A stretch of 64,000 nucleotides of DNA from a virus. The notes under the pieces were generated by a model. That model made no database searches. It was given only the letters and a program-made list of their open reading frames with translations, and was not told the DNA's origin. Below are positions 1-34,135 of this stretch, in pieces; position 1 is the stretch's first letter, and each line of letters opens with the position of its first letter. The stretch is taken from the IMG/VR virus record IMGVR_UViG_3300035181_002074, positions 32,001-96,000 of that record; one strand, given 5' to 3'. A program made the position numbers and the translations under genes.

Positions 1-127
1 TAGAGCCCCAATGAATGGAAATAGCATTCTCCAGTATATCCTCTGATGTATGCAAAACATATTTCCCCGTCGTGAAAGATATAATCCTGAAAGTCTTAAT
101 CTGATGGCATTTATACGGTTTAATCAT
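1..127 (-). CDS. partial small protein (MINRINAIRLRL...), possibly a microprotein-family member; runs off the window
   Basis: Manual translation; ATG overlaps the stop of the upstream ORF. Confidence 0.45.
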   Translation of the reverse strand, partial: MIKPYKCHQIKTFRIISFTTGKYVLHTSEDILENAISIHWGS

Positions 128-314
128 GCTTATTCAACAGGGAATTCATTTTACCTGTTACGTAAGTATATGAATCAATCACTCCAACTACGTATCCGTA
201 AACATACCAAAACACGCCCATGAAAGCTAGCTTACTGGCAATAGTCCAATCCGTTTCTTGTAGGAAGGTTAACGTAGCCCATGCACATATCAATGTTATT
301 ATTATTCTTATCAT
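120..314 (-). CDS. small membrane protein
   Basis: Two hydrophobic segments; start MIRIII lies just after the stop of 316..639. Confidence 0.6.
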   Translation of the reverse strand: MIRIIITLICAWATLTFLQETDWTIASKLAFMGVFWYVYGYVVGVIDSYTYVTGKMNSLLNKHD

Positions 315-315
315 A

Positions 316-639
316 TTATTCCTTAGCCTCTTTGGCCGCTTTCTTTGCTGCTTTTTCAAGCTTAGCGTTTTCTTTCTCGATATCTTCTTGGGTTTGGAGT
401 ACGGATTCGAAACGTTTCACACCGGCTGGCCTAAAAACTGTATTTTTCTCGGAGAAGTTATCCACGATGGACACGAAACGTGGGGTCGCTTCGTCAGTTG
501 CGAATTTCTTATTACCAAAATACCCACATTGGGTAAATTCCACCGTCAAGGCATCAAGTTCTTCGTACAGAGGTTTTACAGCCTCAAGTTGGTCTTTGAT
601 CTGAGCGATACGATTAACGATTTCATTTATACGTGACAT
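316..639 (-). CDS. hypothetical protein with coiled-coil ends
   Basis: AAGGAG RBS and sigma70 promoter upstream. Confidence 0.75.
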   Translation of the reverse strand: MSRINEIVNRIAQIKDQLEAVKPLYEELDALTVEFTQCGYFGNKKFATDEATPRFVSIVDNFSEKNTVFRPAGVKRFESVLQTQEDIEKENAKLEKAAKKAAKEAKE

Positions 640-657
640 AATAAGTCTCCTTTAATT

Positions 658-686
658 AGCATACCATTCTTTTTGATCCGAGTCAA
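658..686 (-). promoter_or_regulatory. sigma70-type promoter TTGACT-N17-TATGCT with TGG extension
   Basis: Direct consensus match with 17-bp spacer. Confidence 0.75.
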
Positions 687-1301
687 GTACTATTTCAAAT
701 CGTCGATGTTGTTGATGTTTATAGTAATTACACATGACCGTATAATACAGCTCTTCATGGTTATCAACGATTCTGATTTCATTACCATATCTGGGGATGT
801 TAAAGAATATGCTGTACCTAGTCCTCATATCGGATCTCGATTTGATAGTGTCTTGGATAATCCATAAATGTTTGCCATATTACGTAGAAAGATGAGTTGC
901 TAGCCCTGATTACATATTTTTCTTTATAACGATATGCGATGGTGTATTCGTGGATTTGTTTCATTCGATTGTTACCACAAATCGTACATCATATGTTGCC
1001 CATCGCTTTAATAAGTCAAGCCAACCATCACTATTATCCCATATATGGACTCCTTGACGATCATCAATATTGATTACATACATTGTAGGTTGATTCATAA
1101 GATATTAATCTGATAATGGTGATCACTGTTATTAAAGAGTTTCCAGATGACGTACATGTCTTCATTATCGTGACCTATCATGTAATTTAAAGTTAATAAA
1201 AGGATGGTGTATTCTTTTGGTGGCTTCATAAAAAATCAATCTGCCACATTTTATCAATCTTTCCTTGGACAAGGTCGATGTGCGCAGCGACCCAGTGTAA
1301 A

Positions 1302-1348
1302 TAATGTTCCAAGGCACTAATGTTCCAAGGCAATTTAGACCAAGGCGA
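1302..1348. repeat. 16-bp-period tandem repeat (TAATGTTCCAAGGCA x2 plus a degenerate third CCAAGGC)
   Basis: Seen directly, inside microprotein ORF 1226-1378. Confidence 0.8.
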
Positions 1349-3224
1349 CTTATTATAAATACGATATGACCTAATCATTGATGGTGACCTCATAAATTTT
1401 GGTGCTAACTAAATGCAGAACTATGCTTCTATTAAACTCCACCCCTACTCCAGCTACATTCGTTTTGATGCTGCTCCATCTGGCACTGACTTTGCCACTT
1501 AGTATTGTCCATCTCGCTCCAATGCGTAAATAAATGCGGAATGATCTTTTATTCATACCACTCCACTTGCCAAACGATATACGGCGCGTCAGAAAGCTGC
1601 AAGCTATCTACCATAACATCATGAGACCCGCGAATAAATCCACCCATAAATATGGGGGATATGCTGTAGTATTTATGATTATATGTATGTACGATATGCC
1701 CACGAATGCGAACTGCACGTAGGTCTTGGTCATTCAAGCTCATCGACAATTACCTCCCAGAACTTGCGGTTATGTGAATGTACTTTGAATACAATTTCGG
1801 GGTTCATCCGATATACTCCACTGATTGACCAAATAGCCCAAGACACATTGTTTGTGATAACACGATAAGATCTACTCATACCATTCCACCTGCCAAATTC
1901 TAATCATAGGTTTATATAAGCAATCTGTCAACCTCATATGGCCAGTCCCAGAGAACTTGGTATATATTGACGACATGAAAAACTTGGTTCTCTTGTGTCT
2001 TTTATATTCCCTGATCCTTACTGCCCGTGTGTTTTTACTCATAAGTTATACCATAGATCGTTTGAACATTTTCAGAGCCTATTATAATATTTTTTTCGCG
2101 GAAAACCCCTAGCATGCTGTTGATCATATCATACTCCTTACCCCAAACACCAGATACTTGCACTAATGAATCGCTCACATATATTAAATATCCTTGCTTA
2201 TTCATTAACAATCTCGATTTCGTAGCCTCTATATATCCAATCAGATTTAAGTACGTGCGACTGCCTAATAATAAATGGATCTGGGTACCAGCCTTGGTAT
2301 ATTATTACCATGTTATCCGTAACGCTCATCATGTCGTAAATTCGCAAAACTTTATACATATTTTACTACCCAAATCTTTGTGATGAGTTGGCCGTTAAAA
2401 GTTAAAGGCACATATATATTGTTTAATTCTCTCACCCATAATACACCGATATCGCTGGTACCACTCCATGCAATGATTCCATGACTCTTAGCGCAGTTAT
2501 TAATGATGTATTGGGTAACTGGTTTATTCATAAGTAAACTCGTATAGTTTCCGAAACGTACTACCTAAGTGAATTGCCCTGTAATTTGCTATTGCGTCAA
2601 AATACCAGCCGAATCCCCATTCTCCATTGCGATAGATAATAACACCATGTGGCAACCTGTTACCCATAAGTTACCTCGACAGTGAAAATCTTGGTGTGGC
2701 GGGGTGACATTCTAGTTTCATCACCGAGATAAGCGAATTTACCTTCTTCGTCTAACGCGTAGATTTCGTAAGCACGATTCTTGTATAGGTATATGCGGGT
2801 AGATTTAATCATATCGCACCACATAGATCTTGATTCGATCATTCGCAGCTATGCTAAATACAGAGCCATCATATATATAACTGTGATATATTGTATACTC
2901 ATTACGACTTATCATCACACGATACTCGAAAGATGGTGGAATTTTATTCAAAGGTCACCGTCCATATACACTGAACCGGCAAACCTTTGGAAGTCAAAGG
3001 CTGTTTTATGAACGTATCAACCATGGACGCAGCTATTTCTGGGTATCCATCCCAGTGTTTGGCAGCATAGCCCGTGCCATTTGTATATACCATGTATGAT
3101 TTATTCATATTCTATCCTGTACCCGCGAGTTACATACGTATTAGTGAAATAATTGATGCTATAATAAAACATTCTATTCATTGAATAGTGGCCACTGCTT
3201 TTAATCCATATATCTTGCCAGAAT

Positions 3225-3395
3225 CTAGTGTCCACAGCAACCACGGAAAGCCCAACAAAAAGCGACTGCCATCCCAATATTCATGACGGCAGATGGCCAA
3301 TTAGTTGGTGGCTCAGGTTTATCATTTTGGCAGGTATCACATTCGCAGTCACAACCATGGCAATTTTTCACACAATCACATTCTTGTTCACCCAT
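3225..3395 (-). CDS. 56-aa Cys-rich (metallothionein-like) microprotein
   Basis: MGEQECDCVKNCHGCDCECDTCQND...AVAFCWAFRGCCGH; 10 Cys; first ORF after a consensus promoter. Confidence 0.65.
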   Translation of the reverse strand: MGEQECDCVKNCHGCDCECDTCQNDKPEPPTNWPSAVMNIGMAVAFCWAFRGCCGH

Positions 3396-3404
3396 AATCT
3401 CTAA

Positions 3405-3433
3405 ACTATACCACTAAACCAGATCTAAGTCAA
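3405..3433 (-). promoter_or_regulatory. sigma70-type promoter TTGACT-N17-TATAGT driving the microprotein array
   Basis: Consensus match with TGG extension. Confidence 0.8.
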
Positions 3434-3434
3434 G

Positions 3435-3443
3435 CCTAATATT
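3435..3443 (+). promoter_or_regulatory. putative late promoter CCTAATATT
   Basis: Same 9-mer recurs upstream of other late genes (12590, 27684, 59168, 62037). Confidence 0.65.
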
Positions 3444-3452
3444 TTGCATTAG

Positions 3453-4100
3453 ATGGCAACCACCAAACAAGACATTATCATTATTGGTAAGGGGGCGATG
3501 AACTCAAATGCATCGTCTGCCCAGATATTTGCCAGCAAAAGCGCTGTCAGTTTTTGGGATACCGCAATTACTTACAACATTGAAACATGTGTTGAATATT
3601 CAGGTAACATCTGGAGATCATTAACTAATTCAAACATAGCTAACAATCCAGCTTCTTCCCCAACCCAATGGGAATTAATCCTAAAAAACACCAAAGACGG
3701 TGATGCCTGTTTCGTTATCAATGGGGCATCTTCTGATCTAATGATGCGCGTCAATTCAATCTGGGAGACTTTGGGCAATAAACCTTACATCATTAGCCTA
3801 AACGATAACCAAGTTTCGCCTACTTCCGCTTTTACTTATTTGGGCACAGCATTCCCATATGCCCAAATCGAGCTAAGAATCAGACGCAATAACTCTTATT
3901 CTTCAGCGTTTAAGAAGACTTACGAGGTTTTAAATGATGGAACTACTGATTTACAATTTTCTGCTGACGGGGTTAGCATTGGTGCTGATACTGGGGTGGT
4001 CATAACCCCTTCAATTACCGCTGGAACGGTATCTTTTGATTACACCAGCACTAACTTATCACAAGCAATTTCACTCGAATATACATTGCGTGGGTTTTAA
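3453..4100 (+). CDS. virion structural/fibre-associated protein
   Basis: CBM5/12-like W...Y.G..W...N.P..W motif; C-terminal beta-rich domain shared with 8400 and 10112. Confidence 0.65.
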   Translation: MATTKQDIIIIGKGAMNSNASSAQIFASKSAVSFWDTAITYNIETCVEYSGNIWRSLTNSNIANNPASSPTQWELILKNTKDGDACFVINGASSDLMMRVNSIWETLGNKPYIISLNDNQVSPTSAFTYLGTAFPYAQIELRIRRNNSYSSAFKKTYEVLNDGTTDLQFSADGVSIGADTGVVITPSITAGTVSFDYTSTNLSQAISLEYTLRGF

Positions 4101-4101
4101 T

Positions 4102-4677
4102 ATGAAACAATGTAATACTTGCAATTTAACTAAAAACCTAGATTCTTTTCATAAAAATAAGAATTGCCTTGACGGTCGTCAATATAAGTGTAAACTATGC
4201 GTCAATACATATCTGAAAGCGTATTATTCCCAAAACAAGGAACAAGTAAAAGAAAAAGTTAATAATTACCGTCAAAATAACCCCACTAAGATTTCGGCAA
4301 GGAAAAAGTTATATCGTCAAAACAATATGCAAAAAGTAAAATCTGGTTTGCATAATTGGTATATGAATAATAAATCGAAATCTGCCGAAACTACAAAAGC
4401 ATATAACAAGGCGCATCCAGCACAGGCTTTGGCGCGATGTAATAAAAGACGAGCATCTAGGCTAAATGCTATACCTAGATGGCTAACCAAAGAAGATTTA
4501 TTAAAAATTAAGGAATTTTACATAGAGGCCAAACGACTAGAGTTATTGACTGGGGGTAAATACCATGTAGATCATATTATCCCACTTCAAGGTGAGGCGG
4601 TTCGTGGGCTACATGTACCTTGGAATTTACAAGTTATTCCTGCCTACCAAAATATAATAAAAGGGAACAAGATTTAA
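4102..4677 (+). CDS. HNH homing endonuclease
   Basis: N-terminal CxxC pairs; YHVDHIIPLQG...GLHVPWNLQVIPAYQNIIKGNK. Confidence 0.9.
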   Translation: MKQCNTCNLTKNLDSFHKNKNCLDGRQYKCKLCVNTYLKAYYSQNKEQVKEKVNNYRQNNPTKISARKKLYRQNNMQKVKSGLHNWYMNNKSKSAETTKAYNKAHPAQALARCNKRRASRLNAIPRWLTKEDLLKIKEFYIEAKRLELLTGGKYHVDHIIPLQGEAVRGLHVPWNLQVIPAYQNIIKGNKI

Positions 4678-10111: not shown

Positions 10112-12586
10112 ATGTCAGTAAATAAAATGCACAAAATGGGTGGAATGTTAAAATTAGCGTCGTTCGCATCCGACCCCGCTAGTCCAGAAAACGGAGTGAT
10201 GTACTACAATAGTACGTCTAACTTAGTACGTCAATATATTAACGGTGGATGGGCAAATATTGCTTCTGGTTCAGTTTCCTTAACTGGTCAATCATTAACA
10301 AATGGTGCAATCATTATCGGTAACGGCAGTGGACAATCAGCTGCAGTAACTCCATCAGGTGATGCAACGATCAGTAACACTGGCGTGATTACAATTGGTT
10401 CCAATAAAGTAACCAACGCAATGATGGCTCAGATGGCTGCTAAGACTTTCAAGGGTAATAACTCTGGGTCTACTGCAAATGCTTCTGACTTAACAGCTGC
10501 ACAAGTTACTGCTGAATTAAGCATTATGTCTGGTGATGCTGGATCAGGTGGAACTAAAGGTTTGGTTCCAGCACAAGTTTCCGGTGATGCTACTAAATTC
10601 TTACGCGGTGATGGTACTTTCGCATCTGCTGCAGATACTACTAAGCTTCCATTAGCTGGTGGAACTATGTCTGGCAATATTGCCATGGGCACCAACAAAG
10701 TTACTGGGTTAGCTAATGGTACCGCAGCTTCTCAAGATGCGGCTACTGTTTCTCAAATGGAAACTGCCGATGGCTTCAAAGTTTCTAAGTCTGGTGATAC
10801 TATGTCTGGTAACTTAGCTATGGGCAGTAACAAAGTTACTGGATTAGCTGCAGCTACCAATTCTGGTGATGCTGTAGAATACAGTCAGTTTTCAACTGCT
10901 ACTGGTAATAAATTGCCTCTAGCTGGTGGAACTATGTCTGGTACTATCAACATGGGTAGTAATAAGATTACTTCTTTGACTGATGGTACTTCTGCACAAG
11001 ACGCAGTAAGCAAAACTCAAATGGAAACTGCCGATGGTTTCCGCGTGGCAAAAGCCGGTGACACAATGTCTGGTAACCTTGCTATGGGTACCAATAAAGT
11101 TACTGGTCTCGGTGCTGGTACTGCAGCAACTGATGCTGTAAATAAATCTCAATTAGATGGAATAAGCGCAGGTCTCGTATGGTTAAGTCCAGTTCAAGAT
11201 CCTGACTTAGTGGACGACAGTTTATCTGCTCCTCCAGTTGCTCCAGTTGCTAACACTACTTACTTGGTTAGCGATACAGCTACAGGATTATGGGCTGGCT
11301 TAGAAGGTCGCCTTGTTTATACCGCTGACGGTGGTACTTCATGGGTAGATGTATTAGGTCGTGCGGTTATTGTCGGCGATCGTTTTGGTATCACTATGGA
11401 GCATGGTTCGGGCTCTGAAGGTGGTAACATGGTGGGTAATCATAATAAGATTGCTCAAATTACTACTGCAACTCCGGGCTCTTATGCTTACAGCTACACT
11501 ACTGCTACTACTAATCAAGCGGTATTCGTTAGTGCTACAGGATCTCAACACACTGGTCATCAGTATACTTTCAACGGAACTTCTTGGATCGAGTTCGGTG
11601 GTACAGCAGCAGTTTCTGCAGGTATTGGTTTATCTTACTCAGGTAACATATTAAATGTTAATCTCGGTGCAGGTATTTCTCAATTACCTTCTGATGAAGT
11701 TGGTGTTGACGTACATACGTCTGGCGGATTATTCACTACCGTAGATAATAGTACTTCTAGTACTGTAACTGCCGCACAATTAGCTATTAAACTTGATGGA
11801 TCTACTCTAGGTAAATCATCTTCTGGTATTAAGGTTGCTACTGGTGGAATTTCAAACAACGAAATTGACGCTGCTGCTGCAATTGCTTACAGTAAATTAA
11901 GTTTAGGTACTAGTATCGTGAATGCTGATATCGCTACTGCTGCAAACATTGCTCGCAGTAAATTAGCTTCTGGAACCAACTACGCTTGGGCTACTAATAA
12001 CGGTTCCGGTGTATTGTCTGATGTTGCTGTAACTGCTTCAAGAGCTGTTGCAACTGATTCAAACGGTGCTCCAGTTGCTTCTGCTACTACTGCTACTGAA
12101 CTAGGTTATGTTTCTGGCGTAACTTCTTCCATCCAAACTCAAATCGGTGGAAAAATTGGTAACGTTGTTGAAGATACTACTCCACAGCTTGGTGGCAATT
12201 TAGATCTAAATGGGCATGCAATTGCTTCCCCATTCAAAGTTGGTACTGATACTAACTTCGTTTCTGAATCATACATCCATACCGCTACTTTGACTGCTTC
12301 TCAAACTAATACAGTGCTAAGTAATTTAACCTTTGCTTTTGCAACTACTATGGCTATCGACGTACAATACACTATTAAAGAAGCTACTACGAACAACGTT
12401 CGCGTAGGACATTTACGTGTAGTATGTAACGGTACCGATATTGGTATCAGTGATGATTACGCTGATTCAGCTGACGTTGGCGTGAGCTGGGATGCAGCTA
12501 TCAACGGAGCGGACGTAGAAATCAACTATACTACGACTGCTAACGCAAAAACCTTTAGAGCTTCCGTTAAGTCTTTCCAAGCGTAA
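10112..12586 (+). CDS. virion fibre protein with GxTMSGNxAMGxNKVTGL repeats
   Basis: Repetitive trimeric-fibre-like sequence; AAGGAG RBS. Confidence 0.8.
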   Translation: MSVNKMHKMGGMLKLASFASDPASPENGVMYYNSTSNLVRQYINGGWANIASGSVSLTGQSLTNGAIIIGNGSGQSAAVTPSGDATISNTGVITIGSNKVTNAMMAQMAAKTFKGNNSGSTANASDLTAAQVTAELSIMSGDAGSGGTKGLVPAQVSGDATKFLRGDGTFASAADTTKLPLAGGTMSGNIAMGTNKVTGLANGTAASQDAATVSQMETADGFKVSKSGDTMSGNLAMGSNKVTGLAAATNSGDAVEYSQFSTATGNKLPLAGGTMSGTINMGSNKITSLTDGTSAQDAVSKTQMETADGFRVAKAGDTMSGNLAMGTNKVTGLGAGTAATDAVNKSQLDGISAGLVWLSPVQDPDLVDDSLSAPPVAPVANTTYLVSDTATGLWAGLEGRLVYTADGGTSWVDVLGRAVIVGDRFGITMEHGSGSEGGNMVGNHNKIAQITTATPGSYAYSYTTATTNQAVFVSATGSQHTGHQYTFNGTSWIEFGGTAAVSAGIGLSYSGNILNVNLGAGISQLPSDEVGVDVHTSGGLFTTVDNSTSSTVTAAQLAIKLDGSTLGKSSSGIKVATGGISNNEIDAAAAIAYSKLSLGTSIVNADIATAANIARSKLASGTNYAWATNNGSGVLSDVAVTASRAVATDSNGAPVASATTATELGYVSGVTSSIQTQIGGKIGNVVEDTTPQLGGNLDLNGHAIASPFKVGTDTNFVSESYIHTATLTASQTNTVLSNLTFAFATTMAIDVQYTIKEATTNNVRVGHLRVVCNGTDIGISDDYADSADVGVSWDAAINGADVEINYTTTANAKTFRASVKSFQA

Positions 12587-14185
12587 CCGCCTAATATTCT
12601 TTACATCGGGGCTATCTTCGGGTAGCCCCACTAATTTCAACAACCAACTAACGAAAGTGACTTAGTAATGGCAAACAATCTATTTAACATCAACAAAGGT
12701 TTATCCCTTAAACCTCAAGCAACTGCACCGGCATCCCCTTCAGCTGGTGACACGTATTACGACTCAACATCCAACACATTAAAAACATGGAACGGTACCG
12801 CTTGGGTAGGCGGCGGCGGTGGTGGGCTTGCTAATGTAGTTGACGATACTTCTCCTCAACTTGGCGGTGAATTAGACGTTAATGGTAATAATATTTTACT
12901 TGGCGTGTCTTCAACAATTAAATCTGGAGCTAGTGATTCAAATATTTCATTCCCATCTTTGGGTTCTGTTAGACTAGAGGCTTCTGTAGCTGGTGACTCC
13001 CTTGTGCTAGGTTCTAACTTTGATGTTCAGATGGTTTCTGGTAATATCACTATGAGCAGCGGTGGAATCGTACAAATTGGTACTGGTTCAAATAAATTTT
13101 CATCCGATTCATCCAAAGCTGTAATTACAAATGGACTTACAAACAAAGTTGAGGTTAATGGTTCAGATATTATTTTAGACGCTGGTGCAGGTAACATTAC
13201 TGCTGCTAGTAATATTGCCATGAGTAGCAATAAGATTACCGGTTTAGCAGCTGGTGGAGTTGCTGGCGATGCTGTAGAATATAATCAATTTGATACAGGG
13301 CTCGGAAACAAGTTAAGTTTATCTGGCGGAACTATGTCTGGCTCTATCAATATGGGCAGCTTAACTATTCAGCAGATGGCTGATGGTGTTGGCTCTACTG
13401 ATGCTGCCACGGTTGGTCAGATGAATACCGCTCTTGGTAATAAAGTTTCCATATCTGGTGACACAATGTCGGGCAACTTAGCTATGGGTAGCAACAAAGT
13501 TACTGGCTTAGCTAATGGTACCTCAGCAAATGACGCTGTAAATAAATCACAATTAGATGGAATCGCTGTAGGGCTTGTATGGTTAAGTCCGGTTAATGAT
13601 CCAGACTTAGTTGATGATAGTTTATCTACCCCTCCGGGTTCTCCAGTAGCTAATACCACATATTTAATCGGCGCTTCGCCTACCGGTTTATGGGCTGGTT
13701 TAGCCGGACATATTGTTTATACCGCTGATGCGGGCGCTTCATGGGTAGACGTTTTAGGTAGAGCAGTGATCGTAGGAGATCGTTTCGGTATCACTATGGA
13801 ACACGGATCTGGTTCTGAAGGTGGCAATATGGCTACCAATCATAACAAGATTGCTCAAATTACTGTTGCTACACCGGGTTCTTATGCATATACATTTACA
13901 ACTCCAGCAACTAATCAAGCTGTTTTCGTAAATGCTAACATCTCGCAACATGCTGGACATCAGTACAGTTACGATGGTACATCATGGATTGAGTTCGGTG
14001 GAGCTGCTGCTGTATCAGCAGGCATTGGATTATCATATTCTGGGAATGTCTTAAATGTGAATCTCGGTGCTGGTATTGCTCAATTACCTTCTGATGAAGT
14101 TGGTGTTGACGTACATACGTCAGGTGGATTATTTACCACTATAGACAACAGTACTTCTAGTACGGCTACCGCTGCACAGTTAGCA
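11057..14185 (+). repeat. direct duplication, about 11057-11785 and about 13457-14185, shared by adjacent fibre genes
   Basis: Colinear at a constant 2400-bp offset (e.g. TGGTGTTGACGTACATACGTC at 11701 and 14101). Confidence 0.85.
12590..12629 (+). promoter_or_regulatory. putative late promoter CCTAATATT followed by a C(UUCG)G hairpin
   Basis: GGGGCTATC-TTCG-GGTAGCCCC at 12608-12629; no U-tract. Confidence 0.65.
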
Positions 14186-14758
14186 ATTTTATTAGATGGA
14201 ACTACTCTAACTAAATCCGCTTCTGGCTTGAGGGTGACTGGTGCAACAGCTGCTGAAATCGGTTATCTTTCTGGAGTAACTTCTTCCATTCAAACGCAAT
14301 TTACCGGTAAACTTTCTACAACCGCTAATGCCGTAGCTAATACTAACTTAGCCCAAATGGCTGCTAATACCTTCAAAGGTAATAATACTGGGTCTACAGC
14401 TAATGCTGCTGACTTAACGGTTGCTCAAGGTAAAGCAATGTTTGGTGTGACTGGTGAAACTGATGCAGGTAACTCTGGTGCAACTAAGACTTTGGACTTC
14501 GTCTTAACCCCAGCTAATAAAGTTACCATGACTGCTTCATGTACTTTTACTTACACTAATATGGTAGCCGGTGGTGCTTACGCGATTCGTATTGTTCAAG
14601 GTGGATCAGGTTCATACACTGTTACTTGGCCTGCTGGAACTAAATGGGCTGGTGGTACTCCTCCAACCTTGACTACTACTGTTGGTGGTATTGATTTAAT
14701 TTCAGTTTACTATGATGGAACTAACTACTACTCTAGTGCTGCTATGGCGTTTGCATAA
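12668..14758 (+). CDS. virion fibre protein, paralogue of 10112..12586
   Basis: Shared ~240-aa block; C-terminal QGGSGSYTVTWP..KW.GG..PTLT motif typical of phage fibres. Confidence 0.8.
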   Translation: MANNLFNINKGLSLKPQATAPASPSAGDTYYDSTSNTLKTWNGTAWVGGGGGGLANVVDDTSPQLGGELDVNGNNILLGVSSTIKSGASDSNISFPSLGSVRLEASVAGDSLVLGSNFDVQMVSGNITMSSGGIVQIGTGSNKFSSDSSKAVITNGLTNKVEVNGSDIILDAGAGNITAASNIAMSSNKITGLAAGGVAGDAVEYNQFDTGLGNKLSLSGGTMSGSINMGSLTIQQMADGVGSTDAATVGQMNTALGNKVSISGDTMSGNLAMGSNKVTGLANGTSANDAVNKSQLDGIAVGLVWLSPVNDPDLVDDSLSTPPGSPVANTTYLIGASPTGLWAGLAGHIVYTADAGASWVDVLGRAVIVGDRFGITMEHGSGSEGGNMATNHNKIAQITVATPGSYAYTFTTPATNQAVFVNANISQHAGHQYSYDGTSWIEFGGAAAVSAGIGLSYSGNVLNVNLGAGIAQLPSDEVGVDVHTSGGLFTTIDNSTSSTATAAQLAILLDGTTLTKSASGLRVTGATAAEIGYLSGVTSSIQTQFTGKLSTTANAVANTNLAQMAANTFKGNNTGSTANAADLTVAQGKAMFGVTGETDAGNSGATKTLDFVLTPANKVTMTASCTFTYTNMVAGGAYAIRIVQGGSGSYTVTWPAGTKWAGGTPPTLTTTVGGIDLISVYYDGTNYYSSAAMAFA

Positions 14759-14767
14759 AGGATTACC

Positions 14768-17700
14768 ATGCATAAGATTATAATGTTTTTGACGAGATCA
14801 GTGATATCCCTGTTAAATCGGGGCTGGATCGGCGTAACTACGGGACTATGGAGTAATTCTGCTAACTGGTCTCCTGCGGTAGTGCCAAATGGCGTGACTG
14901 ATTCAGCAAATATTAATAATACTAGCGGTTCCAATAGTTCAGTGAATTTAGATATGAACGCCACAGTTAATCGTGTGCAATTTAAATCTACTGGCACACA
15001 ATGGAACATCTCTGGCGGAGCTTTTACTTTAACGTTTGCTGGAACGAATCCAAGGATCGAAGTAGGAGCAGTGGGAGGGCAAATCACTAACGATATTTCG
15101 CTTAGTGCTAATCTAACTCTTGATGTGCCGAGTACTTCAACTAATGGTCTTATTTTACGTAAAATCACGGCAGCAAGTAAAACTATCACTCAGTCAAATA
15201 ACGGCGAAGTAACTTATTTAATTAATAACGCTGCTACTATAACAGGAGGCACATATTACCTCGATAACGGTAAGTTATCTTTGGGTGTTGCGAATCCTTT
15301 AGGTAACGCTGGGGGCATGACTATTGTCTGGAGTAATGCAAATCCGACAATCATTAATAATCAAATTACTACACAAACTTTTCTGCATCCAATTACGATT
15401 AATAATACTACTAGTAATGCAATGACCATGAAAACAACCGGTAGCTCGACGACCTTTACATTTTCCGGCGCAATGAGTGGCAACCTTACAGGGCCATTAA
15501 CCTCAGATAATGGTGGTAATTTGGGTGTTATTGCATTAAGTGGCGATCTTAGTGGGGTAACTTGGTCTGGATCTGGAGCGTTATATCATTATGGTACCTC
15601 ATCTACCGGAGTATGCAGTGGATGTGCTGCATCTACATTGAAGATTACTGGTACCGCCGTAACTACGTTATCCGCAACAATGCCAATCATACTAGGGAAT
15701 ACTGTAAATGGATATCGCAATTCAGGATTAACTGGGAATCAATTCTGGTGGGACTCATCGGGTACTTTTCCTAATCCAATTTCTGTACGTGGATCAACTA
15801 CGACAGCCCAAACTGGATATACTAGCCTTAATGTCAATAGTGGCGCTACCGTTAGCGGAAATATTGTTTTAAATACAAATGCTAGCACAAGAGGCGATGT
15901 ATTTAGATTGAATGGAACTAGTACTTATACAGGTATTATATCAAAATCAGCTGGTTCAGATACCGACATGACTATCGCTATATTTGGTAATATTACTTTT
16001 ACTAATGCCAATACGGCAACTAATAATGTAACACTAGAGAATCTTTTAAATGTAACTGGATCAACTCAAAGTACTCTTACTACTATTGCATCTAATGCTA
16101 CTTTAGCTGGTAATGGTTCTGTCAAAGCGGTTACGAATTCTGCTGGATTTATTAAGGCGTATGACAACAATTCACCGGCTACTACTGATATCTTAACTAT
16201 TAATGGTAATTTAACGGAATCTGGCGCATGTGTTCACACTTTTCAAGTAGGTGCTGCAAATGCATCAAGTAAATTGCAAGTTAATGGTAATGTGACGCTG
16301 GCTGGCACAGTGAGTCAAACAACTAGAACTGGCGGAACTTTTGAAATATTAAATTATACTGGAACTCGTACAAATTCTTGGACCACCCCAGTGCCCGGAG
16401 GCTCAATTACCAATGATGATGGCAATAAAAAAGTTATCCTCACTGTGACCGCTACCGGCACCGTTAGCTGGATCGGTTTGACAGCCGGTACATGGCAAAC
16501 TACGACAAATTGGAATCCTGCATGGATACCAAATGATTCGGGTATAATCGTAAACATTAATACCGATCAAGGGGCTGGTGCAAAAACTATTGCTATGGGT
16601 ACAACAGTTCCAGCTACCATTAACCAATTGAACTTTATTAATGCTACGTCTGACTGGACCATTACAGGCACATCTCCAGCTGTTTTAACTTTTGACGGAA
16701 CCAGCCCTGTCTTGAATGCTACTCATTTAGCGGCTATTTCGGCGCCAATAGCGTTAGGAGCTTCTGATCTTGCAATTACCGGTAATGCTAATATTACATT
16801 AGGAGTTTTTAATGCAAACGGTAAAAATATTACCAATACTAACACGGCTGACATAATCCTTTCGGGTACCATGTCCAATGCAACAGGCGTATTATATCAT
16901 CAAGGCAAGGGACTCAGAACAAGTGTTGTGAATGCAACACCGGATATTAATTGGACTAATACTGTTTCTGGTACATATATCAGTGCCGTGGGTACAATAG
17001 CAAAAAATATTATTTTTAATGATACTGGCGCCAATACCTTTGAATTGGGATCATCAACCCAATCTGGTGGGGTATGGACTGGTAGTAATTTTTCAGGTAC
17101 TATTACGCATGATTTAATTGTACGTAACAGTTGTAATATTTTTAACACATGGACTGGATTTACGTTTTCTGGTGGTGCGAGGCTTATTATTGCTGCCCCC
17201 AGCTTAATCGGCGTATTAAATCCACCTAGTGGTGGATTTCCATCTGCAGCAACTATTAGTGTCGGAGATGGAGCAACAACCTCAACGAGCTTCCAGACTT
17301 TTCTTACACCGTTAGCCAGTCCTATTGTTTGCAGACCATCTACGACCACAGCAGGAGTTATAACTATTTATGGCTCTGGAGCGTCGCAAACTTTTTCTAA
17401 TGGAATTACTTTAAATTCCGATTCAAATTGTGTTACAGGATCAATAGTGGATATAGTACCTACTGCTAATATTGCTGCTACTATTAGTGGAGTGATTTCA
17501 AATGCAAGTAATGCTGCAAATGTAACCTTACGCTTGACTAGCTCTGGCGCGGGGTCGATCACCCTAAGTAATACTAATACCTACACTAGTCCGACTAGTA
17601 TTACTGCTACAGCATCTGTCGTAAATGTTACTGGTTCGATTGGTTCAACCTCATTAATTACTTTATCTGGCACAACCGTGACTTTAAAGGGTTCTGGTAC

Positions 17701-18295: not shown

Positions 18296-18733
18296 TTAAT
18301 TACCCCAAAATAATTCACTCAAATAAGAGTGCTTAAAATTAAGGTAAACTTCATATGAAAAAGCGTACATGTACATTAAGCTAATCGGCTCGCCAAATGA
18401 ATCAAAGTTATCATTGTGTGGACGATTCAAGACGCAATGGCCTAGTTCGTGGTGAAACAACATTTGTCTTTCTGTCTCATTTAAGAACCCCCAAAATCTA
18501 TTACTAATCACAATCTTAGGCGTCATGTCTTCTGCTCGACGGCATTCACCCATTCTAGTCGTGCCTAAGTCACTTGCTGTTTCGACAATTAAATCATCCA
18601 CCTTGATGGATTTACCAACCGTTGCCGCATCCCGTTCAAAGGTTGTCACGTATTGTTGATATTGCGGTTCAATTATTAATTGGTGTTCATGGCTACAAGC
18701 CGATAATGCTAGAAGTAAAATAAGGTATTTCAT
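18296..18733 (-). CDS. lipoprotein zinc metallopeptidase
   Basis: Lipobox LSAC; HELGHCVLNRPH plus a downstream SLM Met-turn-like motif. Confidence 0.75.
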   Translation of the reverse strand: MKYLILLLALSACSHEHQLIIEPQYQQYVTTFERDAATVGKSIKVDDLIVETASDLGTTRMGECRRAEDMTPKIVISNRFWGFLNETERQMLFHHELGHCVLNRPHNDNFDSFGEPISLMYMYAFSYEVYLNFKHSYLSELFWGN

Positions 18734-19038
18734 CTGCCGTAAGATCCTTTGCCGAATCGTTTCTCGTATATCTCTTTAAGCCAAGCCGCTTCCGATACCT
18801 TCAATATAGTTTCATATATGCCTGTGCTTGGTTTATTAAACCAAGCTCTTGCGCTAGATAGAGTCGGATGTTTATCTCTCATGTCTTGTTCTATGATATA
18901 TGGGATTCCATCTGTCGCTTGGAAATCTACCTCGCTATACATTGTGGTAATATACTTCCATTCCACTGCCGCATGAGCGACTTCGAAAGTGATAGTTAAA
19001 ACTATGATTGACATCAAAAAAATACAGAAATTTTTCAT
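18730..19038 (-). CDS. exported hypothetical protein
   Basis: Signal peptide ending AHA; ATGA overlap with the upstream gene. Confidence 0.55.
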   Translation of the reverse strand: MKNFCIFLMSIIVLTITFEVAHAAVEWKYITTMYSEVDFQATDGIPYIIEQDMRDKHPTLSSARAWFNKPSTGIYETILKVSEAAWLKEIYEKRFGKGSYGR

Positions 19039-19667
19039 AAATCGATTACCGTAACTGGACGACATGGTGAATACTGCTCGTCACATATAGCTAAGTTATA
19101 AAATGTCATACCATGCTTAGTTAATTGAGTTCCACCCTCGTGATGCAGGTGTCCGCCCATTACATGCTTTGGTTGTTTATCAATACAAGCCTTCAATAGT
19201 TCTTTACATCCTTGATTGCCATTACCGTAAATCGTAGTATCTAAAATACCGTAAGGTTGTCCGTGCGTAATTAACACATCTACATTTTCTGGAATATTAT
19301 CAAACTTCACCCCAATATGGCGACCTCTATCGCGCATCCATGCCCAATTTCCATAGCGCGGAACCCAAGGTGACCCGTAAAACTTGAAGCCATCGATAAT
19401 AATTTCTTCATCTAATAGAACTGTAATACCGTGCTCCTTAAATAATTCTCTTATTATATTGGTTTGTTTTTCAGCATAAACATCATGATTGCCAAAAACC
19501 ACGATCTTATGTTTATGCGGGTAGGCACCAAATTGCTTTGCAAAGGTATAGTGATCGGCATAGTTACCGGAATTACTGAAATCCCCCGCATGTATGAGCA
19601 CGTCTCCGTCTGGGATATCAACCTTGGTTAATTGGTTATGCGTATCGGATAAACAAATTAGTTTCAT
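19035..19667 (-). CDS. metallophosphoesterase (MPPED/239FB-like)
   Basis: SDTH, HAGD, GNHD, LITHG, GHLH motifs. Confidence 0.9.
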   Translation of the reverse strand: MKLICLSDTHNQLTKVDIPDGDVLIHAGDFSNSGNYADHYTFAKQFGAYPHKHKIVVFGNHDVYAEKQTNIIRELFKEHGITVLLDEEIIIDGFKFYGSPWVPRYGNWAWMRDRGRHIGVKFDNIPENVDVLITHGQPYGILDTTIYGNGNQGCKELLKACIDKQPKHVMGGHLHHEGGTQLTKHGMTFYNLAICDEQYSPCRPVTVIDL

Positions 19668-20099
19668 TTCTGCTCTTTCTCTGTTTGCTCAGCAATAGAT
19701 GACTGGTAAATACAAGAAGATATTTCAGTGACCACTGGGATACCCAGCAATAATAGAAACCAAGGGGACTTGGCGGCGCATAAATATATGGTTAAGATTA
19801 TTAACCCAAACCCTAAAATGAGGCTGCCCCAAAATATTAACACTTCTTTTAACGCTTCTTTATTCATTTGCTTCTCCATAAATAAACATTCAAAATAATA
19901 CTAATCACGAAAAGAAACAGTATTGCATCTAATGCTAATGGATATGCCATAGCAAAAAAGGCCGGTGCCCATAAAATAAATTCAATTACATCCATATTAC
20001 ATTCTTCCTTCTAAGTATCCATTAATAATTTGATAAATAGGCATAACCAGAACGATCACAATTAGCACCGATACAGCTGCAACTGCTATCCAGATTGCC

Positions 20100-20489
20100 T
20101 TATTCATCTTTTCTCCTGTATTGTGACACCAATTCTTCAAAATTAATGCAATGATCTACGTGTGGATACTTTGTTAAGACTTCTTTATAAGCTTGCTTGT
20201 AACAAAATACTTGCCATTTACCAAAAAGATAACTCATGCCAGTATACCTGAAAAATGGTATGAATACTTTATAGTCAAGTTTATGTAACCATTTTGGGAA
20301 CCTGTTGTAGATGTGTTGTGGGTAAAAAATGGAATGTAAAGATAATGCTGTACCAAGGTAGGCATACCACCGGGTTGAATAATATTTTTCCTTGATCTGC
20401 CCCATGATCATACCACGTCTAGCCCACTTATGGAAAATATCGATACTATCACTGATGGCTTTATAATCGGGTTGATAATCTGGTCTCAT
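20100..20489 (-). CDS. hypothetical protein
   Basis: Coupled ORF within the operon. Confidence 0.55.
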   Translation of the reverse strand: MRPDYQPDYKAISDSIDIFHKWARRGMIMGQIKEKYYSTRWYAYLGTALSLHSIFYPQHIYNRFPKWLHKLDYKVFIPFFRYTGMSYLFGKWQVFCYKQAYKEVLTKYPHVDHCINFEELVSQYRRKDE

Positions 20490-20788
20490 TTCCGTACCCT
20501 CGCTTCGTAAACACTTGTTACAGTGCGGAATGTAATTACAATATCAATGTGATCGTTTTTCACGCCCAAGATTTGCTGTACAGGTGAAGTTCTGATCGTA
20601 TTAAATCCACGACCGCATAATATGTACGGCTTCACGTTTCCTTCTTTATCTTCAAACTCCATCACTTCAAAGCTACCTTCAATGGTATCACCCAGACTAA
20701 TAAAAGAATCGGCATGCATTTGAATTTTAGTCAATGTGCCATACTTTTCGGATAATATCTTTTTAAGGAGTTCAGTAGCAGCGTTCAT
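20486..20788 (-). CDS. hypothetical protein
   Basis: Coupled ORF; RTS.V...F.T.TS.Y pattern seen in phage proteins. Confidence 0.6.
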   Translation of the reverse strand: MNAATELLKKILSEKYGTLTKIQMHADSFISLGDTIEGSFEVMEFEDKEGNVKPYILCGRGFNTIRTSPVQQILGVKNDHIDIVITFRTVTSVYEARVRK

Positions 20789-21193
20789 TTTTTCTTCCTG
20801 ACTGTTTTTACTAGATCGTAAGTCAAACCTTTGCGCGGCGGATTAAATCTTAAAGCAGATTCCCCGTATTCATTATAGGTTTCTGGCTGTTGCTCACAAT
20901 CTTTGGAATCCGGTACGCAAGACCAATCCAAGATGCCTACGTATGGGTATAAACCAGATTTCATCTTGTGTATGATTTTCACAGTACAACCAACGCCGTC
21001 TTTATAAGTTCTACCTATTTTAATCTTGGCTTTGATCATAAATCTGGCCCAGTGTCGATTCCGTGAGCCAAGCACATTGTTTTTACAGCCTGTAGCTGCC
21101 TGTTCAGTTCGGTATAATGCCCGTCAAACCACCATATAGTGTGGATATTAAAAAGTATTAAGCCAAGGATAATTAATAGATACGGTAAATGCT

Positions 21194-24666: not shown

Positions 24667-26130
24667 TTACTTCCAAAATTCTGGGTCAGCTAATTCATGG
24701 CCTGCAAATATACCTTCCAAATAGCCGATGAGAAATCCGTCTACGACACATTTACCGAATTCACCTTCGCCTTTGTGTCTCTTCTTTTCTTCCTTCATAA
24801 CCTTAATTGCCATTTTATTGAGTTTAACGATAAGATCATGACGCTTAATCAAATGCTGACTGTGCGCGATTAATTCTTCGGGAGTCATTTTCTTTACGTT
24901 TTTCATTTTTTCTTCTTTCTTGGTTTTCGTTTAGACATGGCTGTCGCACATTGTAACCTGATCTTGTTCCACTCCATCATACCGTACCTTTGGGTAAATT
25001 CATCTCTCAGTGTCTTGACGGTGAATCCAAACGAGAAGCTTAATGGATTAACGTTCCCATCTTTGATCATCATCACTATGGCATTTACTTTCATGGCTTC
25101 TTTTTCACCGAGAACCTGATTAAACACCGTAGCGTATAGATCTGCTGTATAATAGGCCACGACGGCATCATTATTAGATACCGATTCGAGGACTTTATCA
25201 ATCAGGCGTTTACCAAATTTCATATTAAAATTGTAAATCTAAAGCTAGGGCTAGGAATATTGCTAATACCGTATAGGCGATTAAAAGGTTATGCACTTGT
25301 CTTTATCCCTAAAGTAATTCATCATGTTAAAAGTCACATTATTACACTGCACCACTAAAGTAGTCCGATTAGAATTAAATCCCACAGAAATGAATTGCCT
25401 ATTATTACCTTCGCATTGCTGTATACCCATTTTGATTAATAATGCCATCGAAATACAAGTCATTTTCTTCTCCTCATAGCGATATTTAACATGATCTTTG
25501 AAACTTCGATAGAGTTTAATCGTGTTAATAAAAAATCAGTAACCTGCTTGTTCGAGTATTCCCAATAATAACCTTCCATTAAAGCTAAAGGAATCTTCTG
25601 GGCTTTACGGCGTAAATCTTTTTGGCAATTATTAATCGCCACTCTAATCATAGAGTGACTAATATAATGCTCATCACCAAGTTCTGGGCTCCCCCAAGTA
25701 TGGTACACCGAACTGGTTCGCGTACCGGCAGTACCTTGGGTGTAATTAATAGTGAAATTGCTTGAGGATACGTTCCTTTGGTGTTTAGCCCAACTCATTT
25801 TTTCCGATCCAAAAAGTATTTATGAACAAGGTTAGCCGCCATTGGGTTATTCAACCGCATTTCCATGAGCATATCGTCCAAATTAATCAGTTCAGCACCG
25901 TCTACAATCCCTACATCGGGTTTACCTTCGCGCCAGATACCTTGGGCTGTCACCACAGTTCCCGTAGCTTCGTCCACTAATACGGTGCCACGTTTGGTCA
26001 CAACCTTAATAATCTGCGGCAGGGCGCCTTCTGCGGCCTTTGGGGAGCCTACAATAACGGCTTCACCTTTAGATAGTTTTTCTAGTAGATCATTAATTGC
26101 GCCAGTGGGTTTTTTAGTGGGTTTCTTCAT
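24667..26130 (-). other. run of small hypothetical CDSs (24667-24906, 24903-25223, 25281-25463, 25460-25798, 25795-26130)
   Basis: Mostly ATGA-coupled ORFs. Confidence 0.55.
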
Positions 26131-27269
26131 ATTTTAATAATAACCTCTTTTTGTTCATCCGTCAACCAGATTTCATAGCATCTGGTCATTTCGTACTGCT
26201 TACGCAGCATATCGTCGGCATTAAATATAGGGTAATGCACGATTTCAAAAGGAACTTGGTACAGGTTTAAGTTGTATGATTCTATCCGATAACGGTATTG
26301 TGGCCTATCATTCATATGTCAACCTGATTTCGTATATTTTGACTATTATAAATGATGACATCCTATTATAATCATAAAACATAAGACTAGCTGCAGTAGC
26401 CGATGGTTTCCTTGGTATATAAAATCCCCCGTCCAGCATAATATCGACGCGATGATCTGGCATCATGGCATAACCTCAATCATCCAGCCTTTGACCATAG
26501 ATTGGGATACCATAAATGCTCCAGATAGATTAATGGTGGGATCTCTTTTAACAGTATACGTGCCAGTAAACATCACAACAATGCGCCAGTGATTTAATCC
26601 GTACCCCATTATTTTTTCACCACATTTTTGGCTTCTAACCCCTTTGGGTTTTCATAAAGATCGAATTCAACTTTATCTCCGCAACTTAAAAGTTTGTAAC
26701 CCTTATCAACAATACTCGAAAAATGCACGAATGCACTTCTGCCATCTTCAAGCTTGATATATCCGTAACCTTTTTTAGCGTCAAACCAATCTACTACACC
26801 CGTTTGCATTTCTTTTTACTTTCTTTAATTTCTAGGAAAAAACCCGCAACAAAATCGACCGGATTATACGGATCATGAGCCACCGATGTCGGGTCTAATA
26901 ACACTGCTTCCGGTGAGAATATCCACGAACTATCAACCAAGAGCCATTGCCCTTTTTGTCTATCTCTAAAAATCATGACCCTAATTTTTTCATTAAAATC
27001 TATTTCAGACATATACGCGGTACACCTTCCTGTCGGCTGGCCAATATATTGGAATCTTATAGGAGTCTCGGATAATTGTGTAGGTTAATGCTCCTCTTTC
27101 ATAAAAATTAATAGCAATAAACAATTGATACTTAATCATAGATCATTATTAAATACATTTTTCGGTCAATTTCATATGGATCAAAAGTGTTTGACATGTC
27201 ATGTGGGTAAACTGGTGCAATCCTTTGAAAGTTTGGTCTCAGTGGAATGAAAATAGTTATAGTTATCAT
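26127..27269 (-). other. second microprotein cluster: 27132-27269, 27005-27139, 26794-27012, 26463-26609, 26308-26466, 26127-26315
   Basis: Manual translation; same terminal motifs as the 652-3235 array. Confidence 0.65.
26609..26809 (-). CDS. csp: cold-shock domain protein
   Basis: G.V.WF...KGYGYI, FVHFSSI, G.KVEF. Confidence 0.95.
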   Translation of the reverse strand: MQTGVVDWFDAKKGYGYIKLEDGRSAFVHFSSIVDKGYKLLSCGDKVEFDLYENPKGLEAKNVVKK

Positions 27270-27698: not shown

Positions 27699-28127
27699 AT
27701 GAAAACTAATCAAAAAGGTCTGGATTTAATTAAAAGTTTCGAGGGGTTACGTCTACATAGCTATCAAGATAGCGTAGGAATATGGACCATCGGGTACGGC
27801 TCTACCGGTGCTGATATCATCGCTGGAATGACTTGGACGGAAGCTCAAGCCGATGCCAGAATGGCGCAAGACTTAGCTAAATTTGAGCAAGGGGTATCGG
27901 AAGCTTTAACCGTTACAGTAACAGAAAACCAATTCGCAGCAATGGTAGCGCTGGCGTATAATGTGGGGTTAGGTAATTTTAAAAGCAGCACATTACTGAA
28001 GAAAGTAAATGCACAAGATTTTGCCGAAGCAGCAAAACAGTTCTTGCGTTGGAACAAAGCTGGTGGTAAAGTATTAGCTGGGCTTACTAGAAGACGAGAA
28101 GCAGAAAAAGCACTATTTGAGGAGTAG
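27699..28127 (+). CDS. endolysin, GH24 lysozyme
   Basis: FEGLRL..Y.D..G.WTIGYG.T; GLTRRREAE. Confidence 0.95.
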   Translation: MKTNQKGLDLIKSFEGLRLHSYQDSVGIWTIGYGSTGADIIAGMTWTEAQADARMAQDLAKFEQGVSEALTVTVTENQFAAMVALAYNVGLGNFKSSTLLKKVNAQDFAEAAKQFLRWNKAGGKVLAGLTRRREAEKALFEE

Positions 28128-28129
28128 AA

Positions 28130-28432
28130 ATGATTTACGACGATGACAGCTATCTATGGGGCTACGGTGGCGGTGAATCTGCAGCTAAACCACTTGTGAC
28201 ATCATCTAGAGATGATATTTATAAATACTCGATGCGTATCAGAGATCTGACCAAAACTGCGATGATCAGTAAAGAAGAAACTGTGGAACTGGAAGACCTT
28301 AGAAAAAAAATTGAGGACATTAGAAGTACTTGCTGGCACGACTGGGAAGTTACTGTTTTATTTCAATTCCCAAAAAGATTATGTAAGCGCTGCGACAAAG
28401 AAGATACCTCTTTTAATCACAGCGCCAAATAA
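28130..28432 (+). CDS. hypothetical protein with CxH...CxxC
   Basis: GAGGAG RBS; follows the lysozyme. Confidence 0.6.
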   Translation: MIYDDDSYLWGYGGGESAAKPLVTSSRDDIYKYSMRIRDLTKTAMISKEETVELEDLRKKIEDIRSTCWHDWEVTVLFQFPKRLCKRCDKEDTSFNHSAK

Positions 28433-28433
28433 T

Positions 28434-28613
28434 TTAAGATAAATCGACTTTTAATACTTTAGCAGTACCAATAGTTAAAGCAATTGCGGGTATAAATAAT
28501 CCCACTAATCCAAATGATAGGCTTTTTTTGAAACATAGTATGATTCCATAAAGATGGATACCTATGCTTGCAATAATTAACCCAGACAGTAAAATAACTA
28601 ATAATAAGCTCAT
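28434..28613 (-). CDS. 59-aa two-TM membrane protein
   Basis: Manual translation MSLLLVILLSGLIIAS... Confidence 0.55.
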   Translation of the reverse strand: MSLLLVILLSGLIIASIGIHLYGIILCFKKSLSFGLVGLFIPAIALTIGTAKVLKVDLS

Positions 28614-28614
28614 A

Positions 28615-30035: not shown

Positions 30036-30055
30036 ATATTATATTACCATAACTT

Positions 30056-31840: not shown

Positions 31841-31843
31841 AGT

Positions 31844-34129: not shown

Positions 34130-34135
34130 TACACA

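Follow-up and report, generated by a model that had tools for sequence, protein, structure and literature searches.

Why does a large phage carry, in a slot between its conserved late (tail-fiber) modules, a region that looks empty at ordinary cut-offs for open reading frames (ORFs)? The region lies at positions 652-3235 of the stretch of DNA that we analyzed (the window, 64,000 nucleotides), which comprises bases 32,001-96,000 of a 160,612-bp phage record in IMG/VR (IMGVR_UViG_3300035181_002074; completeness estimate 99%). Positions are those of the window unless they are given as genome positions. An initial annotation had described the region as an array of 17 small, coupled genes on the minus strand whose products share their two end strands. 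Here we argue that these 17 ORFs are members of a phage-specific family with at least 64 members, that they form part of an early operon with coupled translation, and that their products would be host-directed accessory proteins. We consider this joint reading moderately probable.

Seventeen overlapping ORFs tile the region

When ORFs were listed down to 30 amino acids (aa), and the start codon of each was taken as the one nearest to the upstream stop, 17 minus-strand ORFs of 44-64 aa tiled positions 652-3235 without a gap (m01 to m17 in Table 1). All of them were where the initial annotation had placed them, and the frame switches at every junction between successive ORFs. At 11 of the 16 junctions, the ORFs overlap by 8 nt in the form ATGAnTAA/G, one of them with TTG. 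The 8-nt words are ATGAATAA, ATGAGTAA, ATGATTAA, ATGGGTAA, ATGTATAA, ATGAGTAG and ATGATTAG, plus a single TTGAATAA. The remaining overlaps are of 4 nt (ATGA; three junctions), 11 nt (one) and 14 nt (one). This agrees with the TATGA(A/G/T)TAA-type and ATGA-type junctions that were first reported.

The actual chain, with ORFs counted from 40 aa upward, comprises 17 ORFs and spans 2626 nt, while the best chain in 300 dinucleotide-preserving shuffles had a mean of 1.85 ORFs and a maximum of 4 ORFs (779 nt). This bears on the idea that the region is non-coding and that the ORFs are by-products of a repeated DNA or RNA feature. That idea would fit the apparent emptiness of the region and the weak codon usage of the ORFs (described below), but the shuffles never gave more than 4 tiled ORFs, and the only repeats in the DNA are short junction words: no direct repeat within 600-3450 exceeds 27 nt, and all of them are confined to gene junctions and the termini of paralogues. 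Furthermore, conservation is at the protein level, with synonymous variation, and no alternative genetic code yields long frames. A non-coding origin of the ORFs is extremely unlikely. We also rejected a single long gene with a recoded stop codon (of the code 4 or code 15 type): reassigning any single stop gave longest frames of 126-261 codons across the 6.2-kb array region.

The ORFs belong to a family of at least 64 members

We curated 64 members of the family in five arrays of the genome, and about ten more are scattered elsewhere. Besides the 17-ORF array (array A), there are arrays at genome 29111-32127 (array B), 18635-20819, 14394-15453 and 11477-12863, all of them on the minus strand; scattered members lie at window 26,127-27,269 and, on the plus strand, near 111.6-113.9 kb of the genome. 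The initial annotation had ended the array at 652. Instead, it continues past two unrelated genes with 21 members beyond the window's left edge, so that window position 3395 to genome 29,111 is a 6.3-kb run of 41 genes whose gaps never exceed 13 nt. None of the 64 frames is broken, the packing is tight throughout, and we saw no decayed copies or gaps. Of ten ORFs that we looked up in public gene sets, five are called genes, each in a singleton cluster; the other half are absent with these starts.

Are these ORFs related to each other? We built a profile (a hidden Markov model, HMM) from arrays B-E only, which includes none of the 17 ORFs, and scored array A against 668 decoy ORFs from the same genome. 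In this comparison, 13 of the 17 ORFs scored above the 95th percentile of the decoys and 8 of 17 above the 99th percentile (Mann-Whitney p = 5e-9 versus decoys and p = 4e-6 versus shuffles of the 17; 9 of 17 exceeded the 95th percentile of shuffles). The first three and last three residues are fixed by the gene overlaps, and when these were masked, the signal was kept (p = 2e-5 versus shuffles). It was also kept when the last 9 residues were removed, via the N-terminal strand (p = 6e-4; masking the last 6 gave a surviving signal as well), and when the first 10 residues were removed, via the C-terminal strand (p = 9e-3). With both end strands masked, the signal was gone (p = 0.66). The family signal resides wholly in the N- and C-terminal strands, and the middles (20-40 residues) carry none.

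In the alignment of 64 members, the consensus is M-x4-Y-x-I ... W ... K-x-Y-x-I. The N-terminal strand covers about residues 4-10 and is typically x-Y-R-I-x-I; the C-terminal strand approximates K-x-[YW]-x-[IV]-x-[IVY] and ends 1-3 residues before the stop. A strict form of the C-terminal pattern matches 35 of 64 members and 24 of 668 decoys, and the N-terminal pattern matches 21 of 64 members and 33 of 668 decoys. Thus, the end strands, which had been reported for all 17 ORFs, are frequent but not universal. Tryptophan is enriched 3.2-fold in the family and tyrosine 2.9-fold; aromatic residues make up 17% of the total, and the pI ranges from 4.1 to 11.

The two pairs of paralogues that were named at first are real, with blastp E values of 2.5e-5 for m09/m11 and 1e-8 for m14/m16. 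There are several significant pairs within other arrays as well, and weak blastp links between arrays (B19-E08, 5e-4; A04-B14, 0.003; A16-E09, 0.006; A03-B03, 0.007). We rejected m10/m12 and m15/m17 as duplicates, which by eye had suggested the duplication of a two-gene unit (in shuffle tests, m10/m12 had z = 1.4; m15/m17 had z below 1.3 and was outside the best 20 of 136 pairs).

The middle of each protein had been described as hypervariable. It does lack any family signal, but an active diversifying process is not supported, as no reverse transcriptase was found and the pairs look anciently diverged. Specifically, a diversity-generating retroelement was rejected because the reverse transcriptase family PF00078 has no match in the 160-kb genome (control genomes matched) and because there is no pair of template and variable repeats (about 100-150 nt, with differences at adenines); the direct repeats near the array are the short ones described above.

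The end strands are conserved mainly as protein

At the conserved positions, synonymous codons are mixed (lysine by AAA 13 times and AAG 11 times; isoleucine by ATA, ATC and ATT 7 times each; arginine by both CGN and AGR codons), and the replacements are conservative (Y/W/F, I/V and K/R). The GC content at third codon positions (GC3) is 0.39 and 0.44 in the end strands and 0.40 in the middle, which implies that there is no A/T pressure at silent sites. At second positions, the GC content of the C-terminal strand falls to 0.24, which is what hydrophobic and aromatic residues would be expected to give. Across ten pairs of paralogues, the proportion of synonymous differences (pS) is 0.74-1.0, which is saturated, while the proportion of nonsynonymous differences (pN) is 0.35-0.50; in m09/m11, different codons are used at 20 of 27 identical residues. 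Saturated synonymous sites together with retained residues suggest that the copies are old and have been held by purifying selection, which in turn argues for translation. Judging from these patterns, the main constraint on the end strands appears to act on the protein.

Several observations weigh against this view, and most of them would be expected if the ORFs were real but mostly unrelated orphans, such as any phage has in its early region. Their ends would then look alike because coupling imposes overlapping stops and starts, Shine-Dalgarno-like words and A/T-rich, unstructured initiation sites within neighboring genes, and because they share a peculiar composition. The ATGAnTAA overlap sets residues 2-3 (MNK, MIK, MSK) and the final Y-E. 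Four-nucleotide words that resemble the Shine-Dalgarno (SD) sequence lie upstream of 59% of family starts versus 24% of internal positions; as these words lie inside the C-terminal strand, part of the conservation of that strand may be at the nucleotide level. Most pairwise comparisons among the 17 ORFs are not significant on their own (mean z of 0.35, and only 3 pairs with z above 4), and m01 and m07 were not recovered by the profile from the other arrays. Composition accounts for much of the separation from decoys: a difference from decoys is seen for the middles too (p = 7.5e-6), yet the middles score no differently from shuffles of themselves. Also, by codon usage, the called frame is the best of six for just 35 of 64 ORFs, versus 94% for pieces of long genes, and the family's GC3 of 0.40 is the genome average, versus 0.31 in long genes.

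Unrelated orphans would not explain why the profile signal persists when the overlap residues, or the last 6 or 9 residues, are masked, or why the GC3 of the end strands equals that of the middle. Swaps within amino acid classes (Y/W/F, and K/R including CGN to AGR) are not expected from a nucleotide motif, and several pairs align over their full length, also across arrays. We consider it unlikely that most of the ORFs are unrelated. The evidence from sequence comparison supports the view that the 17 ORFs are genuine genes, coupled to each other, and that they belong to one diverged family in which the end strands are conserved.

Predicted structure and searches for relatives

The initial annotation had also proposed a common scaffold. 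With the alignment of 64 members, AlphaFold2 (AF2) predicts that m04 has strands at residues 2-8, 18-20, 26-28 and 42-48, which form a four-stranded sheet, at a mean predicted local distance difference test score (pLDDT) of 70. Simple profiles of beta propensity peak at residues 5-10 and -2 to -7. However, m12 was modeled from the same alignment without secondary structure (pLDDT of 55), which counts against a shared fold. A small beta-sheet that is common to the family is plausible but weakly supported. Using the m04 model as a query (pLDDT of 70 only), the best results of fold searches were E = 1.0 with Foldseek against the PDB, Z = 2.1 with VIA-align, and a TM score of 0.47 in the Atlas. 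None of these rises above noise, though with a model of this quality the proteins could still have a known fold.

If the end strands do form a sheet, they might also pair edge to edge between proteins, so that the subunits would co-assemble at equal stoichiometry into one hetero-oligomeric beta structure. Coupled translation favors equal amounts, and conservation is confined to exactly those two strands that could pair from one subunit to the next, with variation elsewhere. Nothing speaks against this directly, but a defined machine is hard to reconcile with a number of members that differs from array to array or with the replacement of the entire set in a related phage (see below). Net charges, moreover, range from -3 to +9 within the array. 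Predicting a complex of two copies of m04 gave a score of 0.01, which, without controls, is uninformative either way. We think that co-assembly is quite improbable.

The family does not correspond to any named family that we searched, and the initial annotation had recognized none either. Scanning the 64 members against Pfam-A gave 18 families at E of 1 or below, each of which matched one member only (best E of 0.0011), and scanning them against PHROG gave 6 families at E of 0.1 or below, again with one member each (best 0.0045). The family profile had 0 matches among PDB sequences at E of 10 or below, and a word-indexed homology search with the 64-member alignment found none at E of 1 or below. 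An exhaustive HMM search of 1.84 billion representative proteins with a five-member subfamily returned 4 of the query members and 4 other proteins, but no homologue; of these 4 proteins, the 2 that were examined are tandem-repeat sequences, and a related Pfam domain is present in none of the 4. A feature search of the ESM Atlas was uninformative (best score of 0.80).

Expression of the operon

Array A is preceded by a 57-nt divergent region (3396-3452). It contains, back to back, a minus-strand match to a sigma-70 promoter (TTGACT-17-TATAGT, 3433-3405) and the plus-strand word CCTAATATTT (3435-3444), which adjoins the -35 box of the promoter and lies upstream of the tail-fiber module. The genome contains 15 exact copies of CCTAATATTT, every one of them on the plus strand, and the strand of the arrays has none. 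Similar promoters (TTGAC...TGGTAT) head other operons that contain the family (genome 59,680; 111,017; 13,167).

Because a sigma-70-like promoter heads the operon and CCTAATATTT is absent from the array strand, early transcription by the host's polymerase is plausible. The promoter that the initial annotation noted is indeed present as a sequence match, but such matches are not enriched: the region has 20 of them, versus 18.4 expected from shuffles, and the one at the head of the operon is no better than those in the shuffles, which detracts from the case for early expression. Within the region, the strongest match of this type (TTGACA-17-TATGAT, 11 of 12 positions) lies inside m09 (1903-1931, minus strand) and could be an internal promoter or a chance match.

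We propose that arrays A and B, together with three unrelated small genes, form one 6.3-kb operon of 41 genes, which would be read early by the host's RNA polymerase from a sigma-70-type promoter with an extended -10 element. Translation would probably proceed by termination-reinitiation, since the starts overlap the previous stops (ATGA or ATGAnTAA) and weak SD-like words lie in the C-terminal strand of the preceding gene.

A sister phage carries different arrays

A second phage record (IMGVR_UViG_3300050821_018050; 159,805 bp) has a DnaE that is 69% identical and is syntenic with this phage along its length. We will refer to it as the sister phage. Between conserved anchors, the slot that holds arrays A and B is at genome 29,097-35,453 in this phage and at 107,429-118,922 in the sister phage, where runs of small ORFs (micro-ORFs) on the minus strand are interleaved with larger genes. 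Using tblastn, we found that no micro-ORF in the sister phage's slot matches any array gene of this phage, while the flanking gene is about 55% identical. (The 215-aa plus-strand neighbor of the array has a tblastn match in the sister phage, at 55% identity; a search for related loci found none.)

The sister phage also has about 21 kb (near 81,000-101,900, minus strand) that consists almost entirely of coupled micro-ORFs, about 104 of them, of 36-66 aa and mostly with ATGA overlaps; this stretch is absent here. To compare genomes, we used one uniform, crude gene model. By this measure, runs of at least 4 micro-ORFs (60 ORFs in total) make up 5.5% of this genome, compared with 12.5% (132 ORFs) in the sister phage, and a relative with 36% DnaE identity has no such runs.

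Searching the genome of the sister phage with the family profile gave no match. When the profile was scored on the sister phage's arrays, 14 of 104 ORFs in the large array were above the 95th percentile of shuffles, and none in the syntenic one. This similarity is faint at most and does not establish common descent of the two phages' arrays, which is a further point against our reading. Conversely, a profile from the sister phage's arrays separated the family from decoys mostly by composition and from its own shuffles weakly (p = 0.0016 and p = 0.006). The habit of carrying arrays of micro-genes is common to the lineage; the sequences are not shared.

This turnover raises the question of whether the proteins do anything at all. 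The slot might be a "nursery" of gene birth and death, in which new micro-ORFs, whether duplicated or formed from scratch, would be translated by coupling and would mostly persist as near-neutral passengers, without individual functions, until they are deleted. Consistent with this, the content of the slot was replaced entirely between phages whose flanks are about 55% identical, the micro-ORF load ranges from none in the distant relative through 5.5% here to 12.5% in the sister phage, codon adaptation is weak and GC3 matches the genome mean, and there are no relatives among 1.8 billion proteins. Yet paralogous pairs keep 35-50% of their residues despite saturated synonymous sites, which needs long purifying selection; the 64 frames are all intact and packed tightly, without decayed copies; and the end strands are conserved over five separate loci. 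We therefore regard a nursery of near-neutral genes as doubtful.

Instead, we favor selected accessory genes. Repeated rounds of tandem duplication would have enlarged the family, and its copies would then have diverged for a long time. In each protein, a small sheet would be held together by the pairing of the end strands, while the middle, which varies, would set the target of that copy. The proteins would be dispensable factors that act on the host, in takeover or in counter-defense; this is the least certain part of our proposal, and we infer it from the position, promoter type, size and turnover of the genes. The replacement of the whole array between sister phages fits accessory genes with a fast turnover. 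The initial annotation had further suggested that units are gained and lost as cassettes at the junctions, and the turnover of the whole slot lends this indirect support.

A bolder version is that the lineage keeps a germline "library" of 60 to more than 130 mini-binders, each with two paired terminal beta-strands and a freely evolving insert of 20-40 residues, made in equal amounts from giant coupled operons and renewed wholesale over the time in which species diverge. We put this forward as a speculative and unlikely idea. If it were true, such a library strategy, against host defenses or for takeover, would be undescribed in bacteriophages.

Features of the operon and its neighbors

The features are listed in Table 1.

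Table 1. Coordinates of the operon and of family-like ORFs elsewhere in the window
Feature	Position	Strand	Length	Remarks
Sigma-70-like promoter	3405-3433	-		TTGACT-17-TATAGT with TGG extension; operon head
Operon gene 1	3225-3395	-	56 aa	Cys-rich; hydrophobic C-terminal segment; outside family; between promoter and array
m01	3101-3235	-	44 aa	GTG start at 3235; C-terminal strand RGYRIEYE; poor family-profile score
m02	2944-3108	-	54 aa	Weak full-length similarity to m06 (z 4.7)
m03	2805-2951	-	48 aa	TTG start within TTGAATAA junction
m04	2660-2812	-	50 aa	Top family score; AF2 4-stranded sheet, pLDDT 70
m05	2524-2667	-	47 aa	Public gene call, singleton cluster
m06	2352-2531	-	59 aa	
m07	2198-2359	-	53 aa	Fails profile, though both end motifs are visible by eye
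m08	2035-2205	-	56 aa	
m09	1872-2042	-	56 aa	Paralogue of m11
m10	1730-1879	-	49 aa	
m11	1549-1743	-	64 aa	GGGAGG upstream; paralogue of m09
m12	1371-1556	-	61 aa	Poor AF2 model
m13	1226-1378	-	50 aa	
m14	1095-1229	-	44 aa	Paralogue of m16
m15	961-1098	-	45 aa	
m16	818-964	-	48 aa	Paralogue of m14
m17	652-828	-	58 aa	C-terminal strand RRFEIVL, then a 10-residue tail
107-aa gene	316-639	-	107 aa	AGGAG ribosome-binding site; outside family
64-aa gene	120-314	-	64 aa	Hydrophobic protein; outside family; separates arrays A and B
Array B member 1	2-127	-		Genome 31957-32127; cut by window's left edge; 20 more members down to genome 29111
Five family-like micro-ORFs	26127-27269	-		26127-26315, 26308-26463, 26463-26609, 27005-27139, 27132-27269

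The first gene of the operon encodes a protein with 11 cysteines, 8 of them in the first 22 residues (CDC..C..CDCECDTC), and its C-terminal segment ends in CCGH. It may be a metal-binding membrane microprotein, judging by these residues. The start of m01 is ambiguous, as GTG at 3235, TTG at 3277 (58 aa) or ATG at 3181 (26 aa) could be used. Alternatively, the first unit could be a 40-aa ORF (3178-3300, minus strand) with a TTG start, which ends in KIYGLKAVATIQ and is joined by ATGA to a 26-aa ORF (3101-3181, minus strand; MNRMFYYSINY…RGYRIEYE) that would be just two end strands. The 40-aa ORF overlaps the cysteine-rich gene, so only one of the two readings of the first unit can be correct.

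Within m13, there is a perfect direct repeat of 15 nt (TAATGTTCCAAGGCA; 1302-1332). The two copies are spaced by 16 nt and are hence read in different frames (…PWNIS / ALEH…). Among the genes of the operon, only the 107-aa gene has relatives in other viral contigs (46% identity).

The five family-like micro-ORFs at the end of Table 1, which were the family profile's highest-scoring "decoys," have a cold-shock-like gene and a 72-aa gene among them. The cold-shock-like protein (66 aa; …WFDAKKGYGYI…; 26609-26809, minus strand) was identified by eye. On the other side of the promoter, an ORF of 213 aa (4036-4677, plus strand) lies between tail-fiber genes; by eye, it has an HNH-like motif at its end (HVDHIIP…N…), and it may be a homing endonuclease.

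The phage and its occurrence

Genes for a DnaE-type polymerase, a chaperonin-like protein, an SbcC-like ATPase and tail-fiber proteins with collar domains are present in the phage. It has no close cultured relative; the nearest cultured phage is Myxococcus phage Mx1, whose DnaE is 33% identical. A megablast search of the region against 50,697 phage records gave 0 matches. Genome positions 28,001-36,000 are also represented in 3 public DNA sequencing runs from different studies (2 from sediment and 1 from a microbial mat), one of which may be the source of the record. One of the three has the stretch whole, in a single contig; the other two are fragmentary, and the listed pieces have 0 differences. 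No RNA run is among the public sequencing runs that are listed as containing the stretch.

Comparison with known systems

Large DNA viruses of eukaryotes are known for multigene families or "genomic accordions," such as MGF110, MGF360 and MGF505 of African swine fever virus (ASFV) and the amplification of host-range genes in poxviruses. The arrays resemble these in being lineage-specific tandem expansions whose copy number varies between related viruses. The ASFV and poxvirus proteins, however, are much larger and have known folds or functions, and the copies in the arrays diverged anciently instead of being amplified recently.

The targets of diversity-generating retroelements in phages (such as Mtd of Bordetella phage) combine a conserved scaffold with a variable part, and so do the proteins described here. 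In contrast to those systems, no reverse transcriptase or repeat pair was found, and it is many separate old genes that differ from each other, rather than one gene that varies.

In T4-like and other large phages, conserved modules are separated by hyperplastic regions that consist of small orphan genes (PMC2147016). The slot described here is similar, in that it holds small genes without database relatives whose content is swapped in the sister phage, while the flanks are syntenic. The slots of T4-like phages contain mixtures of unrelated genes, whereas here there is a single expanded family of at least 64 uniform genes of 40-65 aa with regular overlaps (8 nt at 11 of 16 junctions in array A). 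For Leptotrichia, tandem arrays with as many as 44 microproteins of related structure are described, with a reported activity on macrophages (bioRxiv 10.64898/2026.08.11.744246). Compared by their description only, those arrays are chromosomal and bacterial, and the macrophage activity has no counterpart in the phage. Overall, the kind of locus is already known, as large phages have plastic regions in which small accessory genes are expanded in a lineage-specific way; this one is distinct by its scale, the uniformity of its units, the confinement of conservation to two terminal strands, and its total replacement between sister phages.

Implications

Small phage genes are routinely missed or dismissed, and here they account for 5.5% of a 160-kb genome and for 12.5% of the sister phage's. 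The family is an unusually clean natural case of a minimal scaffold with freely evolving inserts. Each array would be a ready panel of candidate inhibitors if the proteins target host functions or defenses; if the proteins are largely neutral, the arrays would show how genes are born and tested through coupled translation. Either way, gene finders and annotation need lower length cut-offs for such phages.

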